In this document: piece after piece, positions 1 to 31,085 of the stretch
Layout: every line of letters begins with the position of its first letter
How positions within the stretch are numbered: the stretch's first letter is position 1
Assembly: GCA_001447805.1 (NCBI GenBank)
Contig: CP013099.1
Coordinates: 3,524,235-3,588,234 of the forward strand
DNA length: 64,000 nt
Direction: 5' to 3'
From: Candidatus Tenderia electrophaga
GTDB lineage: Bacteria > Pseudomonadota > Gammaproteobacteria > Tenderiales > Tenderiaceae
The notes under the pieces: generated by a model
What the model was told of the DNA's origin: nothing
Seen by the model: only the letters and a program-made list of their open reading frames with translations
Databases searched by the model: none
Position numbers and translations under genes: made by a program

Positions 1-618
<618 letters not shown>

Positions 619-620
619 GC

Positions 621-2072: not shown

Positions 2073-2079
2073 AAAGGGG

Positions 2080-3120: not shown

Positions 3121-3178
3121 AAAAGCGCGCCCGAAGGCGCGCAATGCATGTCTCGTCCATAGGGATCGAGACTGTCAG

Positions 3179-3418
3179 TCAGCGCTTGGTAATCATGGAG
3201 TAGAGACGGTCCTTGAGTCTCAACCGCTCTTTCTTGAGGAATTCGACATAATCATCAGTGACCGGCCGGCTCTGGGCCTCGATGCCGTAGATCTTCTTGT
3301 CGGTTTCGTCGTAGCGGGATAATAGGGTGGCAAACTGCGGGTCGCTTTTTTTCAGCGAGCTGATGGTTCCGGAAAAGTTGGGAAACTCTTCCTGAAAGTG
3401 ATGACGAACTCCGTACAT
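3179..3418 (-). CDS. DUF465 (YdcH-like) small protein
   Basis: 79 aa. The region FPNFSGTISSLKKSDPQFATLLSRYDETDKKI aligns with the YdcH/DUF465 pattern (FPEYRDLISRLK..P.F..L...H..LD..I). AAGGAG RBS upstream on the minus strand. Confidence 0.75.
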   Translation of the reverse strand: MYGVRHHFQEEFPNFSGTISSLKKSDPQFATLLSRYDETDKKIYGIEAQSRPVTDDYVEFLKKERLRLKDRLYSMITKR

Positions 3419-3644
3419 AGGCTTTTCTCCTTACGAATTGAGTAACTCACCATCAGCCCCGGCTGGATGCCTTTCGACCGGGGTGAATTTCCAGATTGTC
3501 ACGAATCTTTAATTCAAGTCAACTGCCCCCGCCGCCCCGGGTATTTGGGTTAATGGCTTGATTATCTTAATAAATATAGCCCTGCATAGAGCGCGCCAGG
3601 GGCGCAAAGTAGTTGTATTTTCGAAGCTTTTTTGCGGTGGGGAT

Positions 3645-4865
3645 TTATTTGGCCAGGGCCGCGGCGATGGCCTTGCTGCGCAGTTGGCGCAGGCGTTGGG
3701 CCAGCTTGTCGCCCGCCAGGCCTTGCTGCGCCAGGGCGGCGGCGTCCACCGTCAGGGCGGCCTGGCGGGCGCGGCGCAAGATGTCGGCCTGGGGATAGGC
3801 GCGCCCCTCGTAGCCGCTACGGCCACGATAGTCGGCCTGGCAGGCCAGCAGGAACTCCTCGAAGCGTTGCGGGCGCCGAAAGGCGTCCAGGCCCTGCAGG
3901 GTATCGAGCAGGGTGGTCGGGCGCAGCTCGGCGGCGCGGTGGCAATGGCCGTGGTAGCGTGCCGCCAACAGGGCCAGGTCGCGGTAGTCATTGGGCAGGC
4001 GCAACCGCTGACTCAGCTGCTTCACGAGTTTGACGGAACGCCCTTCGTGGCCCTTGTGGCTGGGCCATTCCGCTGGGGGGGTGGTGCCCTTGCCCAGGTC
4101 GTGCAGTAGCGCCGCGCAGCGTATGCGCGGCGCCGGACTCAGCGCGCAGGCCTGGTCCAGCACCATCAGGGTGTGCAGGCCGGTGTCGACCTCGGGATGA
4201 TAATCGGCCCGCTGCGGCACGCCGAACAGGGCGTCCAGTTCGGGGAAGATGGGCGCCAGGGCGCCGCAGTCGCGCAGCGCCTCGAAGAAGGCGCGTGGCC
4301 GCTGTTCGCCCAGGGCCCGTTGGGTCTCCTGCCAGACGCGTTCCGGCACCAGGGCGTCCACCTCGCCGTTGTCCACCATGGTGCGCATCAGGGCTAGGGT
4401 CTCGTCGGCAATACGAAAACCCAGAGGGGCGAAGCGGGCGTAAAAGCGTGCCACACGCAGGATGCGCACCGGGTCTTCGGCGAAGGCGGGGGAGACATGG
4501 CGCAGCAGCTTGTTGTCCAGGTCTTGCCGGCCGTGGAAGGGATCGATGAGATTGCCGGCCGCATCCATGGCCATGGCGTTGATGGTGAGATCGCGCCGCA
4601 TCAGATCGTCTTCCAGACTGACGTCGGGAGCGGCGTGGAAGGCGAAGCCCTTGTAACCCGGTCCGGTCTTGCGCTCGGTGCGCGCCAGGGCGTATTCCTC
4701 CTGGCTCTCGGGATGCAGGAACACGGGAAAGTCCTTGCCCACCTGGCGATAGCCGCGCGCCAACATCTCCTCCGGTGTGGCCCCCACCACCACCCAATCG
4801 CGATCCTGGACCGTTAGGCCCAGCAGTGTGTCTCTGACAGCGCCGCCGACCTGATAGATCTGCAC
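3645..4865 (-). CDS. cca: Multifunctional CCA tRNA nucleotidyltransferase (HD-domain type)
   Basis: [32 protein letters not shown] matches the E. coli Cca N-terminus; an HD motif (LLHDLGKG) is present. I place the start at the GTG for Val14 of the track ORF (4865), which is preceded by GAGG and avoids a 29-nt overlap with the next gene. Confidence 0.85.
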
Positions 4866-4875
4866 GGGACCTCGT

Positions 4876-5847
4876 TCAGCGCCCGCTGAGCGAATCTTTG
4901 TCACGCGCGGCGCGGCGGCGCAGGGTGTGATAGCGGCCGCGCATATCGGCCCCCCCGATGTACTTGGGTACGATGCTTTCGATGGTCTTGGGCGTCACGC
5001 CGAAGCGCGCCGGAAAGGGATTGCTGCACACCGCCGGCGTCTGCAGGCTCAGGTAATTGTCGTAGGTAAAGGGTTTGTAGGGCAGCTTGCCCATGATCCG
5101 CCCCATGAAGGCCGACATGCCGTTACCCAGCGGAATCACCGGGCGCCGCAGCCCGGTGAGGCGATTGGTGTAGTCGACCACCTGCCTCAGGGTGCAGATA
5201 TCGGGGCCGCACAGCTCGTAGGCCTGGCCGTAGGTGTCCTTGTCGTTGAGGGACTTGACCATGACCTCGGTTACGTCGCCGACATAGATCGGCGCCATGC
5301 GGCTGTCCGGGCAGGTCAGCGGGAATACCGGCAGCCAGCGCAGCAGCCCGGCGAAGCGGTTGAAGAAGTGGTCCTGCTCGCCGAAGATCACCGCGGGGCG
5401 GAAGCTGGTGACGTGCAGATCGTCCGCGGCGTGGGCCAGCCTTTCGCCCGCGCCCTTGCTGCGCAGATATTGGCTGCTGCCCTGATCAGCGTCGGCATTG
5501 AGGGCGCTCATGTGCAGCAGGCGCGTGACCCCGGTGCGGCGGCAGGCCTGGGTGATGCGTTCCACCAGATCGACGTGCACGCGCTTGAAATCGCCGCGCT
5601 TGTTTTCGTTGAGAATGCCCACCAGATTGATCGCCGCATGGCAGCCGACCAGCAGGGCGTCGAGGCTGTCATCATCATGGATACTCGCATCCACCACCTC
5701 CACCTTGGGCAGTACCTGCAGGGAGCGGTGCCGTTCCCGGTTACGTGACGGCACCACCACGTAGTAACCGGCCCGGGTCAGTTGGGACGCCAGGTGATGG
5801 CCGACGAAACCCGTGCCGCCGAGGATGCAGATGGTTTTAGATAACAT
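4876..5847 (-). CDS. NAD(P)-binding SDR protein, complex I NDUFA9-like / epimerase-dehydratase family
   Basis: [12 protein letters not shown] Rossmann motif. 323 aa with an NDUFA9-like architecture. AGGGA RBS. Confidence 0.7.
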
Positions 5848-5997
5848 GCGAAATCCCTGTTCAAATCCGAAAGTGGCGCAAATTTTCCCGTCTTTTCCTA
5901 ACCTTGGTCAAGTTTTTTGCGGCCCGGGCAAGGTTCTGGACGATGGGGTCAAACCCCTTACGCTATACTCAACTGCTATACAGCAAAGGAGTCGCAT

Positions 5998-7362
5998 ATG
6001 CCATTTGTTTCGCAAAATCCCGCTACCGACGAGGTCATGGAGGAATATTCCGACTGGAACGACGAGCAGCTCGAAGAGGCTATGGTTGAGGTCGCCATCG
6101 CCACCCCCAAGTGGGCCGCCACCCCGGTCAGCGAGCGTTGTGAGCACGTGCGCCGGCTCGGCCAGGTGCTCACCCAGCAGCGCGACCGCCTGGCCGAGAC
6201 GGTCAGTCGCGAAATGGGCAAACTCATCGGCGAGGCGCGCAGCGAGGTGGAGAAATGCGCCTGGGTATGTGACTACTATGCCGACAACGGCGCCGAGTTC
6301 CTGGCCGATGAAGTGATCGAGACCGATGCCGGCAAGAGCCTGGTGGCCCATCTGCCCATCGGTACAGTGTTGGCGGTGATGCCGTGGAATTTTCCCCTCT
6401 GGCAGGTGTTCCGTTTTCTTGCCCCAGCCCTGGTGGCGGGCAATACCGGCGTGCTCAAGCATGCCTCCAACGTACCCCAGTGCGCCCTGGCCATCGAAGA
6501 CCTGGTGCGTCGCGCGGGCCTGCCCGCGGGGGTATTCCGTACCCTGATGATTTCGTCCAAGCAGGTGGCCGGGGTGATCGAGGATGCACGCATCCGCGCC
6601 GTCACCCTCACCGGCTCCGAACCTGCCGGGCGCCAGGTGGCCGCCTGCGCCGGCGCCAATCTGAAAAAGACCGTGCTGGAGCTGGGCGGCTCCGACCCCT
6701 TCATCGTGCTCGAGGACGCCGACCTGGACTGGGCCGTGGAGCAGGGTGTCACCTCGCGCTTCCTCAACGGCGGTCAGAGCTGCATCGCCGCCAAGCGCTT
6801 CATCGTGGTCGAAGCGGTGGCCGACGCCTTCCTGGCCAAATTCAAACAGGCGGTGGAGGCGCGCCAGCCCGGCGACCCCCTGGATGAGGCCACCACCCTG
6901 GCGCCGATGGCGCGCAAGGACCTGCGCGATGAGCTGCACCAACAGGTGCAGACCAGCCTGGACAAGGGCGCCGTCGCCGTCACCGGCTGTGCGCCCATCG
7001 ATGCGCCGGGGGCCTATTACCAACCGTCCATTCTCGATGGCGTCAAACCCGGCATGCCGGCCTGGGACGAGGAATTCTTCGGTCCGGTGGCCATCATCAT
7101 CCGCGCCCGCGACGAGCAGGAGGCGGTCAAGATCGCCAATGGTTCCGACTTCGGCCTGGGCGGCAGCGTCTGGACGCGCGACAGTGAACGCGGCGAGCGC
7201 ATCGCCCGCCGGGTGCAGTCCGGCGCGGTATTCGTCAACGGCCTGGTGAAAAGCGATCCGCGTCTGCCCTTCGGCGGCGTCAAGAACTCGGGTTACGGCC
7301 GCGAGCTGTGCCACCATGGCATGATGGAGTTCGTCAACCAGAAAACCCTCTGGATCAAATAG
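5998..7362 (+). CDS. NAD(P)-dependent aldehyde dehydrogenase (succinate-semialdehyde dehydrogenase-like)
   Basis: ATG at 5998 with AGGAG RBS. ALDH motifs are present (ELGGSDP, catalytic Cys in GQSCIAAKR, FGPVA). Confidence 0.8.
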   Translation: MPFVSQNPATDEVMEEYSDWNDEQLEEAMVEVAIATPKWAATPVSERCEHVRRLGQVLTQQRDRLAETVSREMGKLIGEARSEVEKCAWVCDYYADNGAEFLADEVIETDAGKSLVAHLPIGTVLAVMPWNFPLWQVFRFLAPALVAGNTGVLKHASNVPQCALAIEDLVRRAGLPAGVFRTLMISSKQVAGVIEDARIRAVTLTGSEPAGRQVAACAGANLKKTVLELGGSDPFIVLEDADLDWAVEQGVTSRFLNGGQSCIAAKRFIVVEAVADAFLAKFKQAVEARQPGDPLDEATTLAPMARKDLRDELHQQVQTSLDKGAVAVTGCAPIDAPGAYYQPSILDGVKPGMPAWDEEFFGPVAIIIRARDEQEAVKIANGSDFGLGGSVWTRDSERGERIARRVQSGAVFVNGLVKSDPRLPFGGVKNSGYGRELCHHGMMEFVNQKTLWIK

Positions 7363-7377
7363 CGGGAGGCGAACAGA

Positions 7378-8100
7378 CTATTTATTTGCCGCCACCAGTT
7401 CGGCCACGATGTTGCTGGTGATCCTGTCGCGCTCCACCATGCCGATGAGCTGCTTTTTCTCGTTGACCACCGGCAGTTCGGAGAGATTGTTGTGCGACAT
7501 CAGTTGCAGGGCCTTCTCCTTGCTGCTGCCCTGCTCGATTGAGGCCGTCGTGATATCGCCCAGCGTGGTGACGTTGCCGCTTTCCAGGCGGGCGACGATG
7601 TCGAGATTGTTTTCGCGCATTTCAAACAGCAGCTGCGAGGCGTCCATGATGCCCATGAATTCGCCGCTGGTGCGGGTGAACAATACGTACTTGAAGAAGG
7701 GGTAGGGCGTTAGCGCCTGCAGATACTGTTTGATGGCCCAGTTGCTGTAATAGTTGGGCTTGTTGATGTTCAACCTCAGGGCGGCGACCTTTTTCTCGAC
7801 GAATGCGGGGATCTTGCTCAAGCCCTCCTTTTCGTTGGCGGAGATCTGTTCCGGCTCGATCAGGCTGCCTTCCTGCTGCAGCGACACCGGCAGGGCGGTG
7901 GCCTGATTCAGTTTAAAGGCCAGGCCGAAGCCGTTGAACTCCGCCAGCTGACCGGTGGCCAGCAGCCAGATCACCACCGGCGCCAGTCCCAGCGCCAGCC
8001 ATGAGGTCTCGATCTTGAACTCCTTGTTGAGGCGATAGTGGATCAAGGCGAGCACAAACAGAATGGCGAAAAAGACGGCGACGAATATCCACATGGTCAT
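7378..8100 (-). CDS. Membrane protein with two N-terminal TM helices and a C-terminal CBS-domain pair
   Basis: 240-aa ORF with a hydrophobic N-terminus (MTMWIFVAVFFAILFVLALI; WLALGLAPVVIWLLA). GC content is clearly lower than flanking genes. GGAG RBS. Confidence 0.6.
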   Translation of the reverse strand: MTMWIFVAVFFAILFVLALIHYRLNKEFKIETSWLALGLAPVVIWLLATGQLAEFNGFGLAFKLNQATALPVSLQQEGSLIEPEQISANEKEGLSKIPAFVEKKVAALRLNINKPNYYSNWAIKQYLQALTPYPFFKYVLFTRTSGEFMGIMDASQLLFEMRENNLDIVARLESGNVTTLGDITTASIEQGSSKEKALQLMSHNNLSELPVVNEKKQLIGMVERDRITSNIVAELVAANK

Positions 8101-8161
8101 GGTATGACTCCCGTGTCGTAGAAACCGGATACGTCTACTTGTATGTTGATAGCGTGAATCA

Positions 8162-8187
8162 CGGGCGGTTGTGATTACAACCGCCCG
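8162..8187 (-). terminator. Perfect hairpin (11-bp stem, 4-nt loop) immediately after the GDPD gene stop
   Basis: cgggcggttgt-gatt-acaaccgcccg. There is no clear U-tract, so it may be rho-dependent or a stability element. Confidence 0.35.
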
Positions 8188-8201
8188 TTGAGAAGGGCGG
8201 G

Positions 8202-9233
8202 CTAGTGGCCCTCCAACGCCAATCCCATGGCCAGGTCGTCAGTATAAAAACCGTCCACCCCGAGGGAGGACAGGAACAACCACTCGGCGTCCGAATTGAC
8301 CGTGTACACCAGGCCGGCGACGCCCAGATTGTGTAACTGCTGGAGCATCAACGCACCGCTGCCGGGTGTCATAAATTCCAGCTGCTGCAAGACATCCTTG
8401 TCCAGCGCCGCGGCGCGGGATTCCAAGGCCGTCAATGTGCCCACGAATTGGAATACCGACTCATAAATCGGCACCCTGAAAATGGGGCCGACCTGCACCC
8501 ATTGCAGGCCCAGGCCCACGTCCTTGTCCAGCAGGGTCACGGGCAGGCCGCTGGCCGCCTCGAGTTGTGCCGGCGTCAGCAGTTGCAGCAGGTCGAGCGA
8601 CAGAATGCGCGGCAGTTGCGGTTGTTGTTGCTTGACCAAGGCCACAATCTCGGGCGAGAAGGACTCGATCAATACCTGCCTTTGCATCTTGGTGTGATTC
8701 ACCTCGTCCAGGGTGGCGGCGACCAGGGCGGGCACGGTGCCGTCCTCCGGGTCGCACAGCGGCGCCGGGGTCTTGATCTCCAGGATCACCTGGCCGCTGG
8801 GACGCTCGTCGTGGCGTTTGATGGTATAACTGCGGGCGACCTTGAGGATATGCTTGAGTCGGGATGCTTCCCTGAAGCGGTGCCGCAGCTCGGAAAAGCT
8901 CAACTGGTTGACGCAGGTGAAGTCATCGAGAAAATCATCATGCAGGGCCACGGCGATGTGATCCTTGGTCATCACCACATCCACCTCGACAATCTGCGCG
9001 CCCGCGCGAAAGGCGCGCCGCACCGATTCGATGGTGTTTTCGATGGGCTTGTCCGGATGCTCGCCCAGATTGGCGCCGAAGCCGCGATGGCCGATGGCGA
9101 AGGGCTTGAGGTCCGCGCCCAGGACGTCTTCGATGGTCCAGCGATTGTCCTTGTCCGCGGCGGCGTGGGCCGGCAGCGCCACGCACAACAACAGCAATGA
9201 TGTGAAAATAAAACGTGTCAGATAAGTCGGCAT
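8202..9233 (-). CDS. Glycerophosphodiester phosphodiesterase family protein, secreted
   Basis: Signal peptide (LLLLCVALPAHAAAD) and the GDPD catalytic motif AIGHRGF. Confidence 0.8.
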   Translation of the reverse strand: MPTYLTRFIFTSLLLLCVALPAHAAADKDNRWTIEDVLGADLKPFAIGHRGFGANLGEHPDKPIENTIESVRRAFRAGAQIVEVDVVMTKDHIAVALHDDFLDDFTCVNQLSFSELRHRFREASRLKHILKVARSYTIKRHDERPSGQVILEIKTPAPLCDPEDGTVPALVAATLDEVNHTKMQRQVLIESFSPEIVALVKQQQPQLPRILSLDLLQLLTPAQLEAASGLPVTLLDKDVGLGLQWVQVGPIFRVPIYESVFQFVGTLTALESRAAALDKDVLQQLEFMTPGSGALMLQQLHNLGVAGLVYTVNSDAEWLFLSSLGVDGFYTDDLAMGLALEGH

Positions 9234-9383
9234 TACGTCACTCTCCCTGATAGTTATTATTCGGTGCGTCTACACGTCGATGCCTGCGCGCGTGCAGAGT
9301 TACATGATAGTCAATTCTCGCGCTGCTGTGGTGACGGGTAAGGAGAGGTTGCTGGGGATGGAGTGGTGACGTGCCGGCGGCGC

Positions 9384-10964
9384 TTATAAGTCGATATCGA
9401 GTTTGTCCAAGCGGTAGTGCAATTGCCGTGGCGTCATACCCAGGGTACGTGCCGCCAACGTCTTATTGCCCCGGGTTTTGTCGAGCGCCTGCAGGATCGC
9501 TTCTCGATCGCCCGGGTGGACCTTGCTATAGGGGCGGGGCATCAGATCGGCGGGCTGGCCCTCTTGGAAACTTGACATGGCGTTGATCTGGCCGCCTTCT
9601 TCCAGGGCAACGCCGGACTCCTCATTGAGAATGCCCCGGATGGTTTGTTCGCTGATCAGATCGTCATCGCTCATAATCACCAGGCGTTCAACCACATTTT
9701 CCAGCTGGCGCACATTGCCCGGCCATTCGTAGCCCTTCAGCTGGGCGAAGGCGGCATCGCTGAGCATGACGTTGCGTGTGTGCATCTGGTTGCAGCGGTT
9801 AAGAAAGTATAGCGCCAATAGTTCGATATCATCCTTGCGCTGGCGCAGCGGTGGCAGGGTGATGCGGATGACATTCAAGCGATAAAACAGGTCGAGGCGA
9901 AACCCGCCGTTGTTGACGGCCTCTTCCATACGCTGGTTGGTGGCGCTGATAATGCGCACGTCGACGGCGGTCTCCCGGTTGCTGCCGATGCGCTGCACGC
10001 AGCGTTCCTGCAGTACGCGCAGCAGTTTGGCCTGCAGGTCCAGGCTCATGTCGCCGATCTCGTCGAGAAACAGCGTGCCGCCGGCGGCGATCTCGAACTT
10101 GCCGGGCCGCGCGTTCGTGGCGCCGGTGAAGGCCCCTTTCTCATGGCCGAACAGTTCGCTCTCCAGCAGGTTGGCGGGAATGGCGGCGCAATTGATGCAG
10201 ACGAAGGGTTTCTCGCGCCGCTCACTGGCCAGGTGAATCATGCGCGCGAAGCGTTCCTTGCCCGAGCCCGATTCACCCACCAGCATCACCGTGGCTTGCG
10301 ACGCCGCCGCCTTGCGGGCGCGCTCGATGGATTCGCGCAGCGCTCCGCTCTTGCCGATGATGCCGTGCACAGCGTTGTGTTCTCGTCGCTTGACGCGCAG
10401 GGCCCTGTTTTCCTCTTTCAGTTCGCGCGTCTTTTGCTCGATCAGATCATGGATATGCAGGGTCTGGCCGATCATCGCCGCCATGATCTGAAGGATGTAT
10501 AAATCACTGTCGAAGTGGCCGATGACGGTCTTCAGGCAATGCACCGCCAGCACGCCGATGGGGGTGTCGTCGCGCATAATCGGCACGGCCAGATAGGCCA
10601 CGCGTTCACCCGGTGTCGGTTTGGCTGCCGAGACGTGAGCGACATAGGAAGGTTCCTTGCTGACATCGGGGATCAGGGCGATTTCACCTGTCGCCATTAC
10701 CCGACCGGTCACGCCCTCGCCCACGGCATAGGTGCCGCGGTCGATTTCACCCTTGCTGAGGTCGTGACTGTAGGCGATATGCAACATGCGGGTGTCGGGA
10801 GCCGGCAACACAACGCGGCCTCGTGTCAGGCCGAGTTTGTTCGACAACAAGGCCAAGATACCCTGGATGGAATGATGGGGATCGAGGGTTTGTCCCACCA
10901 GCCGTGAGGCATCCTGGATCACTTCAGCGATCTGGGGACTAAACGCCGGGCATTGATTGGGCAT
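9384..10964 (-). CDS. Sigma-54-dependent transcriptional regulator (GAF sensor + AAA+ sigma-54 activator + Fis-type HTH), NifA-like architecture
   Basis: Walker A GESGSGKE and the GAFTGA motif ([15 protein letters not shown]). C-terminal HTH ([17 protein letters not shown]). Start moved to M38 (ATG 10962-10964), which has an AGGAG RBS. Confidence 0.8.
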
Positions 10965-11316
10965 TGCAGCGGTACTCCTGATGAACTCAGCGCCTGTGAA
11001 TGTTGCTCGTAGAAGAGTAAGACGCCTTGGTTGCAGAATCATTGCATCACTATAGATGGGCGCGGATCTGCACACATCAAGTGATATGCACGTATTATTT
11101 GCATATTGTGTTCCACTTGGTGTGAATGTCTCGATGGGGGGTTTTGTGCGCGATCATTGCGCTTTCAAGGTATGGCAGGTGTGCTGCGCGCCCGGCTAAA
11201 GTGCGACAGCGGCGCGTACTGCACCAATCGATGGAGAAAAATGAGCCCCGAAGGCAGGGAAGGTCTCGGGGAGGGGGAGGAGCCTTGTTTCCTCCAGGGC
11301 TCAAGAACGCTTCAAT

Positions 11317-11577
11317 TTAAGCGGGCGCATGGCTGAGCGGTTTGCTCTTGCGCGGTGCGGGTGACGGCAGTTGTCCCAGCATGGCGTAGAGCGGATCCCA
11401 GGCCATGATTGCGGTCATCACCGGATACACCGAGGCCAGGGTGATCCAAGGGTTGCTCGCAAACGAGGTGGCGATGCTGGCACTCGAGCTAAAGATGAGT
11501 GCGATCATTGCGGCGCCCAGCACTAAACGGGCGAACCGCTCTAACGGATGAATATTGTCATAAGGTGTCTTCAGCAT
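11317..11577 (-). CDS. Small inner-membrane protein, DUF2892 (YgaP-like TM domain)
   Basis: 86 aa with two hydrophobic segments. AGGAG RBS 6 nt upstream of the ATG. Confidence 0.5.
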   Translation of the reverse strand: MLKTPYDNIHPLERFARLVLGAAMIALIFSSSASIATSFASNPWITLASVYPVMTAIMAWDPLYAMLGQLPSPAPRKSKPLSHAPA

Positions 11578-16284: not shown

Positions 16285-19200
16285 GTGAACGTCAGCGTTA
16301 AAATCATTCGCTTCATTTCCCGGCACACCTGGTGGTGGACGGCCGGCTTCATCATCCTGCTGGCCGTGCTGCTCACCGCCGCGCGTCTGCTGTTGCCGCA
16401 ATTGGGCGGCTACAAGGCCGAGCTGGAGCAGCAGATCAGCCAGGTCTTGGGCCAACCGGTGCAGGTGCGCGATTTCGAGGTGGGCTGGCACGGCGACGGT
16501 CCGCGCCTGTATCTGCACCAGGTGCGGCTGCTGGACCAGGCGGGCACGCAGACCCTGTTCGGTTTTGACGAGGCCTATATCGATGTCTCCCTGCCCCTGA
16601 CCCTGTATCGCGGCCAGATTGCCCTGCATGACCTGACCCTGAGCGGCATCGAGCTGAGCCTGGTGCGCCAGGCCGACGGCGAAATCACCCTGGGCGAAAT
16701 GAGTTTTCCCAGCGCCGGCCAGCACAACGGCGATGGCGCTGCGGTATTCCGCTGGCTGTTCCGGCAGAACAGTCTGGCGATCGAAAACAGCCTCCTGCAC
16801 TGGCGCGACCATCGCCAGGGTGACTACCAGGTCACCATGCGCGATGTGAATCTGCTGCTGCGCAACAGCGGCGAAAAACATAGTCTCAGCGGTCGGCTGG
16901 CCCTGCCGTCCACCCTGGGCGGCCAGGTGCGGGTGATGGCCGAAGCGCGCGGCGGCGTGGATGATTTCAGCGACTGGACGGTGGACATGTATGCCGAGGG
17001 CGCCGGCCTGGAATTGGTGCAGTGGCTGGTGGACCGGCCCGGCCTGGGCATGCGCATGGTCAGCGGCCAGGCCGAATTGGAAGTGTGGGCCGGCTGGCGC
17101 GACAACCGGCTCGACACGCTCAAGGGCTATGTGTTCCTGCGCGACGCCTATCTGGCGCCGGATCAGCCGGTGCCCGAGATGCCGCAAGATGTGCAGCGGG
17201 TGTCCTCCCTGTTCGGCGAATTCGCGTGGCAGAACCGGGATCACGGCTGGACCCTGGACGTGGACCGCTTGCGCCTGGAAATGGACGGCGTCGCCTGGAC
17301 GCCGGCCCGCGTGCACGTGGCGCAGACCCCCACCGAGCGCGGCAGCCGGCTGGAGCTGGCCACCACGTTCGCACGCGTGGACGACCTCTCCACCCTGCTG
17401 GCGCTCAGTTCCATGCCCAGTCAGGCGCAACGCCAGATCCTGCTCACCACCAAGCCGCGCGGCGAACTGCGCAACACCTACCTCAGTCTGCAACTGGTGG
17501 ACGGCAAGATCCAAGACTATTTCGCCCGCGGCGAACTGCAGGATTTCGCCCTGCTGCCGTGGCAAGAATTTCCCGGTTTCGACGGCCTGGACGCCACGCT
17601 CAACATGAATCAATCGGGCGGCGTGGCCGACATCGGCACCCGCGGCGCCTATCTCGATGTGCGCCAGTGGTTCCGCGACTTTTTCGCCGTCGACGACATG
17701 CGCGGCCGCCTGGCCTGGCAGCGTCGGCCGGACGGGCTGTCGGTCGAGCTGCGGCACTTGGATATCGCCAACCAGGACGCCGCCGTGCGCCTCGACGGCA
17801 AGCTGTTTCTGCCCGCCGACGACGCCTCGCCGGTGGTGAAACTGCTGGCCGACTTCAAGCGCGGCAACGGCGCGGCGGCCAGCCGTTACCTGCCCGCCAA
17901 GATCATGCCCGAGCAGAGCGTGGCCTGGCTCGACCGCGCCATCGTCGCCGGCAAAGTCACCTCGGGCGGCATGCTGTTGCAGGGGCCGATTGAGCGCTTC
18001 CCGTTCACGGACGGTTCGGGGCGCTTTGAGATCCTGTTCAATGTCTCCGACGGCATCCTCGACTACCAGGCGGGTTGGCCGCGAGTCGAGGAGATTGAAA
18101 CCCAGGTGGCCTTCGTCGGCAAGCGCATGTCCATCGAGGCGGTGGCCGGCAAGGTGCTGGGTGCCGACCTCAAGCACGTGGATGTGCAGATCCCCAATCT
18201 GCGCGACAAGCCGGCCATGCTGCACCTGCTGGGGCGTGCCGAGGGCGGCGCCGACGACGTGGTGGATTTTCTCAACAAGAGCCCGCTGCAGCAGCGCTTC
18301 GGTGAGTTCACCGCGGGGGCGCAGGCGACCGGCCCGGCACAACTGGACCTCAGCCTGACCATTCCCCTGCAGGCCGACACCCAGGTGGAGACCCACGGCC
18401 TGGTGGCCTTCGACAACAGTGGCGTCGATTTCAAGCGCCTGGGGGTGGACCTGGACGCCATCTCCGGGATCGTCGAATTCAGCAACACAGGCGTGTCGGC
18501 CAAGTCGGTGGACGCGCAGGTGTTGGGCCAGCCGGCGACCATCGATATCTTCAGCGAGGCGCTGCCGCGCGACAAGACCAATCTGATCTTTGAGGCCGCC
18601 GGCGAGACCCGCTACAACGAACTGGGCAAGCGTCTCGACCTGTTCGTGTTTCCCCATCTCGACGGTCAAAGCCGCTGGCAGGCACGGCTGGAGATTCCGC
18701 GCAGTCAGCGCGGCGGCATCGTTCAGCCCACCCTCAAGCTCACCTCGGACCTGGTCGGCACCGCGGTGCAACTGCCGGCGCCGCTGCAAAAACAGGCCGC
18801 TTCGCCGCGTGAACTGGAAGTGTTCGCGCGCTTCGACGGCCAGGCGCGGCGCTGGTTTTTCGATTACGCCGCCGAGACACTGAGTGGCGTGTTCCTGTTG
18901 CAGGGTGATGCGGGTCTGACGCATGGCGAACTCCATTTCAACGGCCCCGCGCAGCTGCCAGAAAAGCCGGGCCTACGCATCGGCGGCCAGCTGGCGCGCT
19001 TCGATTACGGCCAATGGCAACCCTTGTTGGAGGACGATGCCGCCGCGGGCGCGGCCCAGGCCCGGAGCACGGCGGAGGCCCGGATATCGCCGGTGAATCA
19101 GCTCGATCTCAACATCAGGACCGCCCAATTGTTCGGCCAAACCCTGAGCGACGTCAGGGTGCAGGGCGAGCGCGGCACCTCCCTGTGGACGGTAGATGTC

Positions 19201-20205
19201 AGCAGCGACCGTCTGGTTGGTAAGATTTGGCTGCCAGAAAAACGCAACACCTTGGTGAAAATGGAATTGGAACGGCTCCATCTGGCCCGCCCGCCCAAGG
19301 GTGACGCGCAGCAGACGGCGCCGCAGGAAACGCCTGTCGACCCGGCTGACCTGCCGCCGCTGAGCATGACCAGCCGCCAGACCCGTTACGGCGATCTGGA
19401 CCTGGGCCGTGTAGAACTGGAAACCCGCCGCCGCGCCAACGGCCTCAAACTGGAGCGCTTGAGTGTGGCCTCGGGCATCGTCGAGGGCGTCATTCACGGC
19501 GACTGGCGCAAGGACGAGCGCCACCGCAGCCAGGTGGACGCCGACCTGCGCATTTACAATCTCGGCGCCCTGCTCACCGGGCTTGGCTATGCCCAGAGCA
19601 TCCGCAACGGAGAGGGCACCGGCCAGCTCGAACTGAGTTGGGACGGCCCCTTGCTGGATTACGACCTGGCCAGTCTCGACGGCACGGTGAATTTCGACTT
19701 CAACGACGGCAGCGTGCCGGAGGTGGAGCCCGGCGCCGGGCGCTTTTTCGGCCTGCTCAGTATCTCGGCCCTGCCGCGCCGCCTGAAGCTGGACTTCAGC
19801 GATTTCTTCGGCAAGGGCTTCGCCTTTGATTACATGCGCGGTCATTTCGATATCCGCGCCGGCAACGCCTTTACCGAGAATTTTGAAATGGACGGTCCCG
19901 CCGCCCGCATCGAACTCAGCGGCCGGGTCGGCCTGGTCCAGGAGGACTACGACCAGCGCGTCAAGGTCGTGCCCCATGTCACCTCCGGGCTGCCGACCCT
20001 GGCGGGCATTCTCACCGGCAGCATCGCCCCGGCCCTGGTGATGGCGCTGATCGAAAAGTTGGCCAGTTCGGAAGTGGACAAAGCCACCGGGATTTATTAC
20101 CAGGTCAGCGGCAGCTGGGACGATCCGAAGATCGAGCCTGTGGACCTGGTCAAGGGCGAAGCCCCGGCCGGAGATTCGGGCGCCAGCAGTCGCGCGCCGC
20201 GCTAA
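16285..20205 (+). CDS. yhdP: AsmA-like/YhdP family inner-membrane-anchored envelope protein
   Basis: 1306 aa with an N-terminal TM anchor. Position (rng - yhdP - tldD) is the same as E. coli yhdP. Confidence 0.85.
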   Translation: MNVSVKIIRFISRHTWWWTAGFIILLAVLLTAARLLLPQLGGYKAELEQQISQVLGQPVQVRDFEVGWHGDGPRLYLHQVRLLDQAGTQTLFGFDEAYIDVSLPLTLYRGQIALHDLTLSGIELSLVRQADGEITLGEMSFPSAGQHNGDGAAVFRWLFRQNSLAIENSLLHWRDHRQGDYQVTMRDVNLLLRNSGEKHSLSGRLALPSTLGGQVRVMAEARGGVDDFSDWTVDMYAEGAGLELVQWLVDRPGLGMRMVSGQAELEVWAGWRDNRLDTLKGYVFLRDAYLAPDQPVPEMPQDVQRVSSLFGEFAWQNRDHGWTLDVDRLRLEMDGVAWTPARVHVAQTPTERGSRLELATTFARVDDLSTLLALSSMPSQAQRQILLTTKPRGELRNTYLSLQLVDGKIQDYFARGELQDFALLPWQEFPGFDGLDATLNMNQSGGVADIGTRGAYLDVRQWFRDFFAVDDMRGRLAWQRRPDGLSVELRHLDIANQDAAVRLDGKLFLPADDASPVVKLLADFKRGNGAAASRYLPAKIMPEQSVAWLDRAIVAGKVTSGGMLLQGPIERFPFTDGSGRFEILFNVSDGILDYQAGWPRVEEIETQVAFVGKRMSIEAVAGKVLGADLKHVDVQIPNLRDKPAMLHLLGRAEGGADDVVDFLNKSPLQQRFGEFTAGAQATGPAQLDLSLTIPLQADTQVETHGLVAFDNSGVDFKRLGVDLDAISGIVEFSNTGVSAKSVDAQVLGQPATIDIFSEALPRDKTNLIFEAAGETRYNELGKRLDLFVFPHLDGQSRWQARLEIPRSQRGGIVQPTLKLTSDLVGTAVQLPAPLQKQAASPRELEVFARFDGQARRWFFDYAAETLSGVFLLQGDAGLTHGELHFNGPAQLPEKPGLRIGGQLARFDYGQWQPLLEDDAAAGAAQARSTAEARISPVNQLDLNIRTAQLFGQTLSDVRVQGERGTSLWTVDVSSDRLVGKIWLPEKRNTLVKMELERLHLARPPKGDAQQTAPQETPVDPADLPPLSMTSRQTRYGDLDLGRVELETRRRANGLKLERLSVASGIVEGVIHGDWRKDERHRSQVDADLRIYNLGALLTGLGYAQSIRNGEGTGQLELSWDGPLLDYDLASLDGTVNFDFNDGSVPEVEPGAGRFFGLLSISALPRRLKLDFSDFFGKGFAFDYMRGHFDIRAGNAFTENFEMDGPAARIELSGRVGLVQEDYDQRVKVVPHVTSGLPTLAGILTGSIAPALVMALIEKLASSEVDKATGIYYQVSGSWDDPKIEPVDLVKGEAPAGDSGASSRAPR

Positions 20206-25150: not shown

Positions 25151-25981
25151 ATGACGGATGACAATAATCACAACAGCGACGATGTGCTGGTCAAGATTCG
25201 CGGCCTGAGTTTCAAGCGCGGTGCGCGCATGATCTTCGACAATATCGACCTGGATATCCAGCGTGGCAAGGTGACCGCCATCATGGGGCCCAGCGGTACC
25301 GGGAAAACGACCTTGCTGCGCCTGATCGGCGGGCAGTTGCGTCCCGATGCGGGCACGGTGGAGGTGGACGGCGAGAACGTGCATCGTCTGTCCCAGACGG
25401 CGCTGTACACGCTGCGCAAGCGCATGGGCATGCTGTTTCAAAGCGGCGCCCTGCTGACCGATCTCGATGTCTATGACAACATCGCCTTTCCCATCCGCGA
25501 ACACACTGAGCTGCCGGAAGAATTGATCCGCGACCTGGTGCTGATGAAGCTGGAGGCGGTGGGGCTGCGCGGCGCGCGTGAGCTGCAGCCCAGTGAACTC
25601 TCGGGCGGCATGGCACGGCGCGTCGCTCTGGCGCGCGCTATCGCCCTGGACCCCATGATGATCATGTACGATGAGCCGTTTACCGGCCAGGATCCCATCT
25701 CCATGGGCGTCATCGTGCAACTGATCCGTAAACTCAATGACGCCCTCGGCCTGACCAGCGTGATCGTCTCTCATGATGTGTCCGAGACCTCGGCCATCGC
25801 CGATTATGTCTACGTGCTGTCGGGCGGCAAGGTGATGGGCAAGGGCTCGCCCGATGAACTGGAACGTTCCGATTCCGACTGGGTGCAGCAATTCATCCAC
25901 GCCGAGCCGGACGGCCCGGTGCCGTTCCACTATCCGGCGCCCGATTATGTCGAGGATCTGATGACAGGGGCGCCGGACTGA
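25151..25981 (+). CDS. mlaF: Phospholipid ABC transporter ATP-binding protein MlaF
   Basis: Walker [10 protein letters not shown] and ABC signature [14 protein letters not shown]. First gene of the mla cluster. Confidence 0.85.
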
Positions 25982-26754
25982 TGCAGTGGCTGCGCAATCT
26001 GGGCCGTTCCGGGCTCGGCTTTTTCGAGCGCCTGGGGCGCGGCCATTTATTTTTTCTGTCCCTGATCGCCGGTCTGCCGAGTTTGCTGCCACGCCTGCGC
26101 CTGCTGTTGCAGCAAATGTATTCAGTGGGCGTACTGTCGCTGTTGATCATCGTCGTCGCCGGCCTCTTTGTCGGCATGGTGCTGGGTCTGCAGGGCTACA
26201 ATACCCTGGTGGATTTCGGTGCCGAGGAGTCCCTCGGCGTCATGGTGGCCCTGTCCTTGGTGCGCGAGTTGGGGCCGGTGGTTACGGCCCTGCTGTTCGC
26301 CGGTCGCGCCGGCTCGGCCCTGAGCGCCGAGATCGGTCTGATGAAGGCCACCGAGCAGCTCTCCGGCATGGAGATGATGGCGGTGGACCCCATCAAGCGC
26401 GTGGTGGTGCCGCGCTTCGTCGCCGGTATGTTGTCCATGCCTTTGCTGGCGGCCATCTTCAGCGCCGTCGGCGTGATGGGCGGTTATTTCGTCGGTGTCG
26501 GTCTGCTGGGGGTGGACAGCGGCGCCTTCTGGTCGCAGATTCAGGACCGCGTGGATTTTTATGAGGACGTGGGCAACGGTGTCATCAAGAGTCTAGTCTT
26601 CGGTGTGGTGGTGACCTGGATCGCCGTATTCGAAGGTTACGACAGCGTACCCACCTCGGAAGGGGTGGCGCGGGCCACCACCCATACCGTGGTGCACGCC
26701 TCGCTGGCGGTGCTGGGACTGGATTTTGTCTTGACCGCATTGATGTTTGATTAA
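25981..26754 (+). CDS. mlaE: Phospholipid ABC transporter permease MlaE
   Basis: 257-aa multi-TM permease; ATGA overlap with mlaF. Confidence 0.85.
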
Positions 26755-26765
26755 AGGAACAGCTT

Positions 26766-27239
26766 ATGTTTCAAAACAAAAATGTAGAGATTCTGGTGGG
26801 CATCTTCATCGCCGCCGGCCTCGGCGCCTTGTTCGTGCTGGCCATGAAGGTCAGCAATCTGAGCGAGTTCGGCGAGGAGGGCGGCTATCCGCTCATCGCC
26901 CGCTTCGACAATATCGGCGGTCTCAAGGAGCGCTCGCCGGTGACCATGGCCGGGGTGCGCATCGGCCGGGTGGAACAGATCGGCTTTGATGAACAGACCT
27001 TCGAGGCGGTGGTGACACTCAAGATCCGGGAGCAGTATGACCAGCTGCCGGAGGATACCAGCGCCAGCATTTTCACCTCCGGCCTGTTGGGTGAACAGTA
27101 TGTGGCCTTGGAGGCGGGCGGTTCCATGGATAACATGCAGCCCAATGATGAATTCAAGATCACCCAGTCGGCCTTGGTGTTGGAAGAACTGATCGGTCAG
27201 TTCCTGTTTAAGGCGGCGGGAGGAGGCGGCAGCGAGTGA
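26766..27239 (+). CDS. mlaD: MCE-domain periplasmic substrate-binding protein MlaD
   Basis: N-terminal TM segment followed by an MCE domain; 157 aa. Confidence 0.85.
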   Translation: MFQNKNVEILVGIFIAAGLGALFVLAMKVSNLSEFGEEGGYPLIARFDNIGGLKERSPVTMAGVRIGRVEQIGFDEQTFEAVVTLKIREQYDQLPEDTSASIFTSGLLGEQYVALEAGGSMDNMQPNDEFKITQSALVLEELIGQFLFKAAGGGGSE

Positions 27240-28585
27240 GAACGTGTTTGGCATTGCTCTGCCTGAGTCTGGCCCTGCCGGCGGCGGCGGAGACCCTCGA
27301 CCTGGATCAGGCCATCGAGCGTGCCCTGAACAGCGATCCGCGCATTGAAGAGCGGCGTCACTTCGTTGCCGCGGCGCGCGGCCAGTTGGAAGAGGTGGAA
27401 GGCCATGGCGGCTGGTTTGTGGAGAGCAACAGTTTTCTCGCCCTGGCGCCGCAGATCGAGGGCAGTATCTTCGAGAACGGCGGCTGTACGCCGGGCAATT
27501 GCGAGCTGCGCGACGACCGCTATGAATTCAGAGGCGCCTCGCTGTGGTTGAAGATCGATCTGGCCCTGCTCAAGCCGCTGCACACCTTCGGCAAGTTGGA
27601 AAACTACTCTGATGCGGCCCAGGCCAACATCCGTATCAAGGATCAGGATGTGCAGTTGCAACGCAATGCCACCGTGCTGGATGTGAAAAAGGCCTACTAC
27701 GGCTACCTGGCGGCGCGCGACGGGCGCCTGGTGTTGGAGGACGTGGAAAAACGTCTGCAGGGGGCCATCGACTTGGTGCAAGGGTGGCTGGACCAAGGCG
27801 AGGGCGAGGTCAGGCAATCCGATCTCTACGCCCTGCAGTCCGGGCGGGCCCTGGTGGCCAAATACAAGGCCCAGTCCGCGGCCTTGGAAAAGGTGGCGCT
27901 GGGCGGCCTCAAGGTGCTCACCGGCATCTCCCAGGACGAGACGCTGGAGCTGGCCGACCGCCGTATTCGCCCGGTGGAATTGCCGGGTGGCAGCATGGAG
28001 GAATTGCAGTCCCAGGCCATGCGTCAGCGCCCCGAGATGGCGCAGTTGGAGGCCGGCATGGCGGCGCGCCGCGCCCTGGTGGCGGCGAATAAATCCACCA
28101 GCAATCCCGATCTGTACGCCGGGGTGGCGGCCACCCTGTCCTATGCGCCCGAGCGCAACCGGCTGGAGAACCCCTATATCTATGACCCGTTCAATGAGGC
28201 GGGCATGACGCCGCTGATCGGTCTGCGCTGGAACTGGAACCCGGGCGTCGCCGACGGCAAGATCACCAGCGCCGAGGCCGAATTGAACGCCTTGATCGCC
28301 AAGTCTTCCTTTGCCCGCAAGGGTATTCCATACCAGGTGGCGGAGCAGTATTACCAGGTACAGGGTTACCACAAGGCGGTGCAGCGTCTGGAAGAGGCCA
28401 GCCGCTCGGCGCGGCGCTGGATGATCGCCAGCTATACCGATTTCGAAGCCGGCCTGGAAAAGGCGGAAAAGATCATGACCGCCATGCAGGCCTACGTGTT
28501 GGCCATGACCGATTATTTGCAAACCACCTTTGAATACAACATGCATGTGGCACGTCTGGAAGATGCCGCGGGGAAGACGCCATGA
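27236..28585 (+). CDS. TolC-family outer membrane efflux protein embedded in the mla operon
   Basis: 449 aa. Signal peptide, then the canonical TolC N-terminus (ETLDLDQAIERALNSDPRIE). GTG start overlaps the mlaD stop (GTGA) and the stop overlaps the mlaC start (ATGA). Confidence 0.75.
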   Translation: MRTCLALLCLSLALPAAAETLDLDQAIERALNSDPRIEERRHFVAAARGQLEEVEGHGGWFVESNSFLALAPQIEGSIFENGGCTPGNCELRDDRYEFRGASLWLKIDLALLKPLHTFGKLENYSDAAQANIRIKDQDVQLQRNATVLDVKKAYYGYLAARDGRLVLEDVEKRLQGAIDLVQGWLDQGEGEVRQSDLYALQSGRALVAKYKAQSAALEKVALGGLKVLTGISQDETLELADRRIRPVELPGGSMEELQSQAMRQRPEMAQLEAGMAARRALVAANKSTSNPDLYAGVAATLSYAPERNRLENPYIYDPFNEAGMTPLIGLRWNWNPGVADGKITSAEAELNALIAKSSFARKGIPYQVAEQYYQVQGYHKAVQRLEEASRSARRWMIASYTDFEAGLEKAEKIMTAMQAYVLAMTDYLQTTFEYNMHVARLEDAAGKTP

Positions 28586-29190
28586 AACGATTGATGACGA
28601 TTTTTGCGCTGCTGTTGAGTTTGACAGCGGCGCCCGTGTGGGCCGCCCAGTCGGCGCAGGAGCTGGTCAGGCAGACCTCCGAACGCATGCTGAGCACGCT
28701 CAAGCAGGAACAGGCGGTGATCAAAAACAATCCCGAGCGTATCTATGAGCTGGTCAATAAGATCGTCTTGCCCCATTTCGATTTTGAATACATGTCGCAG
28801 TTGGTGCTGGGCAAGTACTGGCGCCGCGCCTCGGCGCAGCAGCGCGACGCCTTTACCGAGGAGTTCAAACAACTGCTGGTGCGCACCTACGCCACTTCGC
28901 TGAATGAATACACCGACCAGGAGATCAGCTTTCTGCCCTTTAGGGAAGGTGGTGATCCGGAGCAGGCCCAGGTGCGCACCGAGGTGGAGCAGCCCGGCGG
29001 TTTCCCCATTCCCATTGATTACAAGCTGCATAAGAGCGGTGACGCGTGGAAGGTGTTCGATGTGGTGATCGACGGCGTCAGCCTGGTGACCAACTATCGC
29101 AGCAGTTTCTCCAAAGAGATCCGCCAGGGCGAACTGGACGGCCTCATCGCCACCCTCAGGCAGCGTAACCAGGACGTAATGAAAAAGTGA
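28582..29190 (+). CDS. mlaC: Periplasmic phospholipid-binding protein MlaC
   Basis: Signal peptide plus the MlaC/Tgt2 fold. Position is mlaD-x-mlaC-mlaB. Confidence 0.85.
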   Translation: MKRLMTIFALLLSLTAAPVWAAQSAQELVRQTSERMLSTLKQEQAVIKNNPERIYELVNKIVLPHFDFEYMSQLVLGKYWRRASAQQRDAFTEEFKQLLVRTYATSLNEYTDQEISFLPFREGGDPEQAQVRTEVEQPGGFPIPIDYKLHKSGDAWKVFDVVIDGVSLVTNYRSSFSKEIRQGELDGLIATLRQRNQDVMKK

Positions 29191-29495
29191 GTGCCGCCCA
29201 ACAGCTCAAACGGCAGGCGCCGGGGGCGTTCAGCCTCGGCGGCGAGTTGAGCTTCGCCACCGTGCCCGATCTGGTGGGCGCCGGCGCGCGCCTGTTTGAC
29301 GACGCCGCCGAGGTGGAAGTGGACCTGGCCGAGGTGGGCCGCAGCGACAGCGCCGGCCTGGCCCTGCTGGTGAGCTGGATGCGCCTGGCGCGGCGTCACG
29401 ACAAGCGACTCAGTTTTCATCAGGTGCCCGAGCAGTTGGTGGGCCTGGCCAAGGTCAGCGGTGTGGCCCAGCTGCTCGCCCTGGAAACGCCTTAA
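29187..29495 (+). CDS. mlaB: STAS-domain protein MlaB
   Basis: 102-aa STAS domain, overlapping the mlaC stop. Confidence 0.75.
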   Translation: MSAAQQLKRQAPGAFSLGGELSFATVPDLVGAGARLFDDAAEVEVDLAEVGRSDSAGLALLVSWMRLARRHDKRLSFHQVPEQLVGLAKVSGVAQLLALETP

Positions 29496-29582: not shown

Positions 29583-29825
29583 ATGCAAGCACAACAGATC
29601 AAACAGATGATAGAGACAGGCCTGCCCGGCAGTGAGGTGCAGGTGTTGGGTGACGACGGTCAGCATTTTGATGCCGTCGTGGTGTCCGAGGCCTTTAATG
29701 GCAAGACCATGGTGCAGCAGCACCAGCTGGTCTACGCCACCCTGGCGGGGCGCATGGAGAGTGGCGCGATCCACGCCCTGGGCTTGAAGACCTATACGCC
29801 AGAGGCGTGGTCCAAGGCGCAATAG
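29583..29825 (+). CDS. ibaG: BolA-family protein IbaG/YrbA
   Basis: 80-aa BolA-like protein immediately upstream of murA, as in E. coli and Pseudomonas. Confidence 0.75.
   Translation: MQAQQIKQMIETGLPGSEVQVLGDDGQHFDAVVVSEAFNGKTMVQQHQLVYATLAGRMESGAIHALGLKTYTPEAWSKAQ

Positions 29826-31085
<1,260 letters not shown>

Follow-up and report, generated by a model that had tools for sequence, protein, structure and literature searches.

In the canonical Mla systems of Escherichia coli and Pseudomonas, the genes mlaF, mlaE, mlaD, mlaC, and mlaB stand in this order beside ibaG and murA, MlaD is short, and MlaC, the periplasmic lipid carrier, is soluble. To our knowledge, the only established outer membrane partner of MlaC is MlaA with OmpC/F, and both the way in which lipids cross the periplasm and the direction of Mla transport are still debated. 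Here we analyze a 64-kb stretch of DNA from Candidatus Tenderia electrophaga (contig CP013099.1, positions 3,524,235–3,588,234; hereafter the window), in which an mla operon orthologous to the canonical one, with the same gene order and the same ibaG-murA slot, short MlaD, and soluble MlaC, differs in carrying a gene for a 449-residue TolC-fold protein between mlaD and mlaC. This protein, here called OEP after its Pfam family, is in our judgment probably an integral component of a variant Mla pathway, namely an outer membrane station that partners physically with MlaC. The outer membrane partner proposed for the window type would thus be a channel-tunnel, and not the inner-leaflet lipoprotein MlaA.

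The E. coli operon encodes no outer membrane component, as a preliminary description of the window, made from its letters alone, had correctly stated; the mla operons of Neisseria and Burkholderia contain mlaA (PMC11131202). In the dataset of Grasekamp et al. (2023), consecutive accessions give the order mlaE-F-D-mlaA-mlaC for Pelobacter carbinolicus, P. acetylenicus, and Desulfocapsa sulfexigens (PMC10665443), which, like the window, have an operon-encoded outer membrane component in the exact slot between mlaD and mlaC; there, however, the slot gene is mlaA (PF04333), whereas here it encodes an unrelated OEP-family protein. The nearest precedent in the literature is the mlaEFD-tolC-tamB adjacency of Veillonella parvula (Negativicutes), in which a tolC homologue lies directly 3' of mlaD. 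That system differs in having neither MlaC nor MlaA and in its long MlaD with an α-helical extension and a C-terminal β-barrel, and its authors used TolC only as an outer membrane marker and gave it no Mla role (PMC10665443). The features of this minimal trans-envelope MlaEFD type were not found in the window, where MlaD has 157 residues and one MCE domain and MlaC is present. In chloroplasts, TGD1/2/3 and TGD4 combine an Mla-type ABC (ATP-binding cassette)/MCE complex with an outer-envelope β-barrel that is not MlaA, but TGD4 is LptD-like rather than TolC-like, and there is no MlaC. In our searches of the searchable literature, neither a TolC-family gene in the mlaD-mlaC slot nor a fusion of OEP with MlaC such as that reported below turned up.

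Results

The coordinates of the OEP gene and of the features around it are given in Table 1. The mlaD/OEP junction reads GAGTGA, so that the GTG that starts the OEP open reading frame (ORF) in the ORF table (27236–27238) shares two bases with the mlaD stop codon TGA (27237–27239). The OEP/mlaC junction reads ccATGAaa, where the mlaC ATG (28582–28584) shares two bases with the OEP stop codon TGA (28583–28585). Both overlaps, GTGA and ATGA, had been noticed in the preliminary description, as had the place of a 449-residue protein with a signal peptide between mlaD and mlaC, which the ORF table, our reading of the sequence, and the Pfam matches of the neighboring genes confirm. The Shine-Dalgarno sequence AGGAGG of the OEP gene falls in the 3' end of mlaD, within the part that codes for the Gly-rich tail of MlaD. 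The N terminus of OEP, MRTCLALLCLSLALPAAA followed by ETLDL, reads as a Sec-type signal peptide with an AxA cleavage site, and this region is poorly conserved among homologues, as expected for a signal peptide. The GC fraction is 0.61–0.63 at the OEP gene, the same as in its neighbors, and base composition is uniform along the operon. Public contigs carry an identical OEP protein (P0001), whose gene call has the same boundaries. An ORF antisense to OEP and of exactly its length, 449 residues (27197–28546, minus strand), was rejected as a high-GC mirror artefact with no family support; the ORF table contains many further long shadow ORFs of this kind.

MlaF, MlaE, MlaD, MlaC, and MlaB are encoded together in the window, all five with Pfam and NCBIfam matches. 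MlaD is 46% identical to its E. coli counterpart and scores 185 bits against an equivalog cut-off of 135 for TIGR04430. Because of this identity, the 62% identity of both MlaF and MlaE (Table 1), and the ibaG-murA flank, which is exactly that downstream of the E. coli operon, the window operon is, on sequence and gene order, the orthologue of the E. coli housekeeping Mla operon and not a paralogue.

Two word-indexed searches returned at least 591 and at least 1232 OEP homologues of about 450 residues; those listed come from uncultured Gammaproteobacteria and have no annotation more specific than "TolC family protein." In a scan of one genome per species, 350 species had an OEP relative, and synteny was read from the best 80, which are 48–88% identical and carry labels including Ca. 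Tenderia, Chromatiaceae, Ectothiorhodospiraceae, and Thiotrichaceae. The gene directly after OEP is mlaC in all of the 79 related loci with sequence available, and the gene directly before it is mlaD in 73; the arrangement mlaFED-OEP-mlaCB-ibaG-murA is likewise kept in 73 of the 79 gammaproteobacterial genomes. The 4-nt overlaps are conserved as well, that of mlaD with OEP in 44 of 74 loci and that of OEP with mlaC in 65 of 80 (locus L001 counted). Since gene order and overlaps are conserved across ∼80 species-level genomes, we conclude from these comparisons that the OEP gene has long belonged to the operon and was inherited vertically. The recent insertion with a promoter of its own that the preliminary description had considered is thus not what we found, and a consensus scan, itself weak evidence, detected neither a plus-strand promoter-like site nor a terminator-like site at the borders of the OEP gene. 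Together with the overlaps and the AGGAGG sequence, this speaks for coupling of OEP to the operon. In one clade (L013–L019), ∼1.5 kb of extra sequence lies between pmbA and mlaF.

Six of the 79 loci have no mlaFED upstream of OEP. Five of them belong to one subclade (L058, L062, L065, L068, L070, and L078), which includes a sixth relative whose contig ends at the OEP gene, and the other, L072, is a singleton unrelated to it; there were thus at least two independent events of mlaFED removal at this locus. Minus-strand fabA is the immediate upstream neighbor of OEP-mlaC-murA in L058, L062, L065, and L078, and in the three of these with enough upstream sequence (L058, L062, and L065) it is followed farther out by an E. 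coli-type lptB-lptA-lptC-kdsC-kdsD-yrbG cluster. The upstream genes of L068 are unlike those of the other loci of the subclade, and in L072 OEP-mlaC-bolA-murA comes directly after a histidine kinase gene. In both lineages mlaFED is gone upstream and mlaB is gone downstream, and the OEP-mlaC pair is kept with its ATGA overlap intact. This survival without mlaFEDB indicates that OEP is separable from MlaFEDB and tied to MlaC. A comparable split is seen in Campylobacter, where mlaA and mlaC stay together and mlaDEF lies elsewhere (PMC11131202). In four further loci (L045, L050, L074, and L075), mlaB is weak (30–31% identity) or undetectable 3' of mlaC even though mlaFED is kept; they fall in the same gammaproteobacterial subgroup as the mlaFED-less loci, which suggests that MlaB is being lost there.

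The link between OEP and MlaC takes its closest form in P0227, a protein of 677 residues in which Pfam places OEP first and MlaC second. Three contigs, one from each of three samples, encode an identical P0227, with mlaE-mlaD upstream and a 4-nt overlap. A linker of 50–60 residues, rich in Pro, Gly, and Ala, joins the two domains, and no signal peptide precedes the MlaC domain. For these three reasons, the identical copies, the linker, and the missing signal peptide, P0227 was treated as a real gene fusion and not as a merged gene call; as its sequence is arranged, it would tether MlaC to the periplasmic C terminus of the TolC-like protein. The fusion operon has no mlaB, ibaG, or murA and hence comes from a lineage other than that of the window, and in all three contigs it is followed by a gene for a FIST-domain sensor (L083, 3836–5008). 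Two OEPs of the distant set described below (L127, 965–2872, and L152, 5941–7872) have a C-terminal AMIN domain, of the peptidoglycan-binding type, where P0227 has MlaC.

We searched 1.84 billion cluster representatives exhaustively with an OEP profile, which gave 2900 matches at E ≤ 1e-3 and 363 at E ≤ 1e-30. Among the 150 matches listed, full-length members of the core family scored 480–607 bits and, after a gap, a continuum ran from 300 to 164 bits. A metagenome scan, started from an alignment of 11 sequences of this outer shell, returned 80 loci, whose neighboring genes were recognized with profile hidden Markov models made from the gammaproteobacterial genes. Almost everywhere the order is mlaE-mlaF-mlaD-OEP-mlaC, with mlaD preceding OEP in 70 of 70 loci and mlaC following it in 64 of 69; two apparent MlaD::OEP fusions (L116 and L151) were ORF-calling artefacts, mlaD being present in another frame. 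The source names include Nitrospinota, Nitrospirota/Thermodesulfovibrionales, Geobacter sp. SVR, Pelotalea chapellei, Oryzomonas, and Desulfuromonadaceae, and the complete genome of Geobacter sp. SVR shows mlaE-ABC-mlaD-OEP-mlaC directly. The shell OEPs are 29–30% identical to that of the window over the full length (E about 1e-62 to 1e-69) and share with it the loop-2 motif NRDxxxNPFIxDxFN. Their operons have the order E-F-D, as opposed to F-E-D in the window type, and contain no mlaB; the constant element is D-OEP-C. In a further lineage mlaF is divergent from mlaE-mlaD-OEP-mlaC, again with 4-nt overlaps. The spread of the mlaD-tolC-mlaC arrangement that the preliminary description had proposed to survey thus extends, beyond the 73 of 79 related loci, to a distant shell in several phyla, and its term "lineage-specific" does not hold, since homologous mlaEFD-OEP-mlaC loci occur in Geobacter, Nitrospirota, and Nitrospinota. 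Transfer of OEP with mlaC as a cassette was also considered: the window MlaC is relatively nearer to that of Geobacter than the window MlaF, MlaE, and MlaD are to theirs, yet its best solved relative is the MlaC of Ralstonia.

The same slot was followed in the dataset of Grasekamp et al., which lists mlaE-F-D, one unlisted gene, and then mlaC for Geobacter sulfurreducens and Desulfobacca acetoxidans (PMC10665443). By analogy with Geobacter sp. SVR, we infer that the unlisted gene is OEP, and mlaA and OEP would then be equivalent occupants of the mlaD-mlaC slot in Desulfuromonadales. Searches with E. coli MlaA as query (tblastn and jackhmmer) found no MlaA homologue in the window or in about 168 fetched loci, and the supplements of the Ca. 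Tenderia paper make no mention of VacJ, MlaA, or TolC.

Many non-enteric bacteria have no OmpC/F-type porins, and the TolC-like trimer might stand in for these as the β-barrel partner that holds an MlaA encoded elsewhere. Such a scaffold would agree with the fact that E. coli MlaA functions in complex with trimeric porins (PMC11131202) and with the single MlaA-family gene that G. sulfurreducens keeps. This homologue, however, clusters with MlaZ and adjoins a homologue of the lipase MlaY (PMC10374164), Desulfobacca acetoxidans is listed with MlaC and without any MlaA (PMC10665443), no MlaA gene was found beside OEP in any of the about 168 loci, and the fusion joins OEP directly to MlaC and not to MlaA. 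We regard the scaffold explanation as highly improbable.

OEP matches the Pfam family OEP (PF02321) with 73 bits against a cut-off of 22, in two repeats, the best stretch being residues 255–445. Its scores lie far below the cut-offs of the curated subfamilies (44 against 225 bits for TIGR01844, TolC; 21.5 against 210 bits for TIGR01845, NodT), which sets it apart from both, and no NCBIfam model reached its cut-off for any clade member tested, distant ones included. The best PDB match by sequence was SilC (E = 0.011). An AlphaFold2 model of the single chain, built on 27 homologues, has TolC topology, with a predicted local distance difference test (pLDDT) of 88.5 and a predicted template modeling (pTM) score of 0.78. 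Strands at residues 61–72, 101–116, 292–303, and 321–331 form two β-hairpins; helices at 120–187, 194–229, 336–404, and 410–445 comprise two long descending ones (H3 and H7, 68–69 residues) and two ascending ones; and there is an equatorial segment. In a Foldseek search of the PDB, the model matched ∼40 outer membrane factor (OMF) chains over the full length (template modeling score 0.70–0.81, E 1e-18 to 1e-14), among them E. coli, Klebsiella, and Salmonella TolC, OprM, OprN, OprJ, CusC, SilC, VceC, CmeC, and MtrE, at 12–18% identity. The two Pfam repeats and the model with its Foldseek matches uphold the TolC-family identity given in the preliminary description, and a non-TolC fold, which would have spoken against it, was not what the prediction returned. 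OEP is thus predicted to be a divergent TolC-type channel-tunnel, which as such would be trimeric.

We measured residue conservation of OEP on sets of 27 and 81 sequences. The predicted extracellular loop 1 is unusually long and carries, in both sets, a near-invariant pair of cysteines (Cys-84 and Cys-89) and the invariant residues Arg-92 and Asp-94, the motif CxxxxC..R.D being present in 59 of the 81 sequences; the long conserved loops are probably disulfide-bonded. The two most conserved segments of the protein are the second periplasmic tip, with a mean top-residue frequency of 0.80, and loop 2, with 0.79 and the consensus SPxRDRLDNPYIYDPFN, against 0.64 for the whole protein. The Mla-linked TolC-like clade was defined by an OEP-family gene directly upstream of mlaC, usually after mlaD, and by two motifs, of the type QP(L/I)YTFGK and, in loop 2, N(R/P)..NP(F/Y)I.D.FN; the window OEP has KPLHTFGK and NPYIYDPFN in these places.

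The tripartite efflux and type I secretion systems (AcrAB-TolC, MacAB-TolC, and CusCFBA) share with OEP the protomer fold and its dimensions, and in them, too, an inner membrane transporter, ABC or of the resistance-nodulation-division type, is encoded beside the OMF. The window locus differs in its partners, an MCE protein and a lipid carrier in place of a membrane-fusion or adaptor protein, in the low subfamily scores, and in the long and conserved extracellular loops. OEP could nevertheless be a general-purpose OMF that serves efflux or type I secretion pumps encoded elsewhere and is simply co-expressed with envelope genes. E. coli tolC is likewise encoded apart from its pumps, the periplasmic tips of OEP have ordinary OEP-type turn motifs (WL..G.G...QSD and DFEAGLE), and ibaG and murA are examples of unrelated genes that stay linked to mla. 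Against this, the linkage is seen alike in gammaproteobacteria, Desulfuromonadia, Nitrospirota, and Nitrospinota, although their operons differ in order and in whether mlaB is present, the pair is kept after mlaFEDB loss, and there is a genuine fusion to MlaC. In addition, the scores are remote from the TolC and NodT cut-offs and the extracellular loops are strongly conserved, which those of typical OMFs are not. No adaptor gene (membrane-fusion protein or HlyD) was identified among the neighbors in any flank inspected, although OMF genes can be unlinked from their pumps. A hitch-hiking OMF of this kind is therefore very unlikely in our estimate.

Among the most remote members of the clade, some loci have OEP together with MlaC but have neither MlaE nor MlaD. 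In one such locus (L171, Logan SRR8371833 contig, 1–11458), mlaC on the minus strand is divergent from OEP on the plus strand, and the further genes encode an MMPL transporter of 926 residues, an aminotransferase, a GFO/IDH/MocA oxidoreductase, and a CDP-alcohol phosphatidyltransferase, with functions in phospholipid synthesis among them; this gene content suggests an island for making and exporting lipids in which OEP and MlaC serve without MlaFED. In another, the pair adjoins an LPG_synthase_TM (HpnL-like) gene. Three further candidate fusions were not accepted: P0256 (L174, 85–3149; LPG_synthase_TM+OEP), whose OEP part has its own signal peptide and which is probably two merged genes; P0300 (PEPCK+OEP), probably a gene-call artefact; and P0294 (L087, 1–3694; MMPL HpnN-like+OEP), an unverified case from one partial contig. 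A 2025 bioRxiv preprint proposes a hopanoid route HpnN-HpnM-HpnS in which the MlaC-like carrier HpnM links the MMPL transporter HpnN to the MlaA-like outer membrane partner HpnS (PMC12324291). The remote OEP loci resemble this route in standing beside MMPL and HpnL-like genes but differ in the outer membrane partner, and by analogy the TolC-like protein would occupy the place of HpnS. The best profile match of both the window MlaC and the fused MlaC domain of P0227 is the HpnM model; no hopanoid genes were identified in the window. Taken together, the loci show, as far as gene context reveals it, that the genetic coupling of OEP is primarily to MlaC and secondarily to MlaD or a different inner membrane lipid transporter.

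The genes 5' of the window operon are, in order, rng-yhdP-CN_hydrolase-tldD-darP-pmbA-mlaF. YhdP and Mla, two lipid-trafficking systems usually assigned opposite directions, are thus near neighbors. Farther away, the window contains two adjoining genes of the molybdopterin-oxidoreductase family and a gene whose product has DUF3943 as its sole Pfam match (Table 1).

Table 1. Features of the mla operon and other genes of the window
Feature	Position	Strand	Evidence
DUF3943 protein, 501 residues	11866–13371	−	Sole Pfam match
YhdP (AsmA-like) gene, 1306 residues, ∼5 kb upstream of the mla operon	16285–20205	+	Pfam YhdP, 921 bits
mlaF, ABC ATPase, first operon gene	25151–25981	+	Pfam ABC_tran, 108 bits; 62% identity to E. 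coli MlaF
mlaE, permease; start overlaps mlaF stop	25981–26754	+	Pfam MlaE, 253 bits; 62% identity to E. coli MlaE
mlaD, short, 157 residues, single MCE domain	26766–27239	+	Pfam MlaD, 78 bits; TIGR04430
Shine-Dalgarno sequence AGGAGG of the OEP gene	27221–27226	+	9 nt 5' of GTG; read from the sequence
OEP gene, divergent TolC-fold outer membrane protein, 449 residues	27236–28585	+	ORF table; Pfam OEP, two repeats; AlphaFold2; Foldseek
OEP signal peptide (predicted), residues 1–18, MRTCLALLCLSLALPAAA, cut before ETLDL	27236–27289	+	Sequence reading
Predicted extracellular loop 1, residues 73–100, unusually long	27452–27535	+	Model secondary structure
Predicted extracellular loop 2, residues 304–320, APERNRLENPYIYDPFN	28145–28195	+	Clade signature
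mlaC, periplasmic lipid carrier	28582–29190	+	Pfam MlaC, 217 bits
mlaB (STAS)	29187–29495	+	Pfam STAS_2, 65 bits
ibaG (BolA family, 29583–29825) and murA	29583–31085	+	Pfam BolA; ORF table; E. coli layout
Two adjoining molybdopterin-oxidoreductase-family genes, 739 and 584 residues	42538–46625	+	

Discussion

The persistence of OEP-mlaC without mlaFEDB, the OEP::MlaC fusion, and the presence of mlaA in the equivalent slot support the idea, already raised in the preliminary description, of an alternative outer membrane partner. The reading that we prefer is that the TolC-type OEP takes the role that MlaA with OmpC/F has in E. coli, either replacing MlaA or working in parallel with it. MlaC would dock on OEP and exchange lipid with it. 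From helix lengths like those of TolC, the OEP tunnel may reach about 100 Å into the periplasm and so bring the outer membrane station near the MlaD ring, with MlaC as an adaptor that is tethered or works over a short range. A soluble periplasmic carrier that feeds a tripartite system has a precedent in CusF. Because the helices are of TolC length and P0227 implies that MlaC can work while tethered, we favor a compact arrangement that brings MlaC, the MlaD ring, and the end of the tunnel close to one another.

A related alternative is a direct trans-envelope duct, in which the TolC-like trimer would sit tip to ring on the MlaD hexamer, MlaD would be its own adaptor, and MlaC would be accessory. 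The resulting continuous MlaFEDB-TolC conduit would expel lipids or hydrophobic solvents; this explanation overlaps with the preferred one and differs in what the tunnel contacts. The pseudo-sixfold tips of TolC match the sixfold MlaD ring, the tunnel helices of OEP are of full length, mlaD lies directly upstream, often overlapping, in 73 of 79 and 70 of 70 loci, and the fusion, by tethering MlaC near the duct, implies that duct and inner membrane complex are close. Veillonella offers a precedent both for Mla bridges and for an adjoining tolC (PMC10665443). The window MlaD, however, is a short canonical protein, a TIGR04430 equivalog with no extension, and MlaC is retained and is the tighter partner, OEP-mlaC surviving without mlaFED in two lineages and the pair occurring also with MMPL transporters and without MlaD. 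We therefore consider a direct duct unlikely.

Several points weigh against OEP as the partner of MlaC, the reading preferred here. The genes ibaG and murA are as conserved beside mla as OEP is, and common descent can preserve gene order within a clade even when the genes are not functionally linked. A mirror-tree test of rate co-variation, run on 55 loci, gave a partial r of 0.42 for OEP with MlaC, the best value of OEP but an unspecific one, since murA gave 0.35–0.47 with several partners, and for this reason it was discarded as evidence for the pair. The identity of the slot gene in G. sulfurreducens and Desulfobacca is deduced by analogy with Geobacter sp. SVR. Finally, a water-filled TolC tunnel would seem to offer no obvious path for a phospholipid, and we know of no TolC-family protein that takes lipid from a soluble carrier.

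OEP may function in the export of lipids or solvents, as the preliminary description had suggested. TolC ducts and MMPL transporters are exporters, and by analogy the partners seen here favor outward transport; the consensus for E. coli Mla, which is retrograde, would argue against this direction. The most far-reaching reading, which we put forward as tentative and less than probable, is an MlaC-fed exit duct, in which lipid would pass from an inner membrane transporter to MlaC, from there into a dedicated TolC-type tunnel, and on to the outer leaflet or the cell surface. The inner membrane transporter would be MlaFEDB in the window and MMPL/HpnN-like proteins elsewhere. If true, this would be a third architecture of Gram-negative lipid transport, apart from the MlaA shuttle and the bridges of MCE or AsmA type, and natural evidence that orthologous MlaFEDB/MlaC can run outward.

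Being genetically locked to MlaC, OEP offers a candidate for a second, structurally unrelated outer membrane terminus for the same carrier. It also provides an experimental handle, as genetic work is feasible in Geobacter and nature has supplied, in the fusion protein, a complex suited to cryo-electron microscopy. If the proposed partnership is true, the biology of TolC would extend beyond adaptor-dependent efflux and secretion, and the partnership would explain how the pathway is completed in bacteria that have MlaC but no canonical MlaA.

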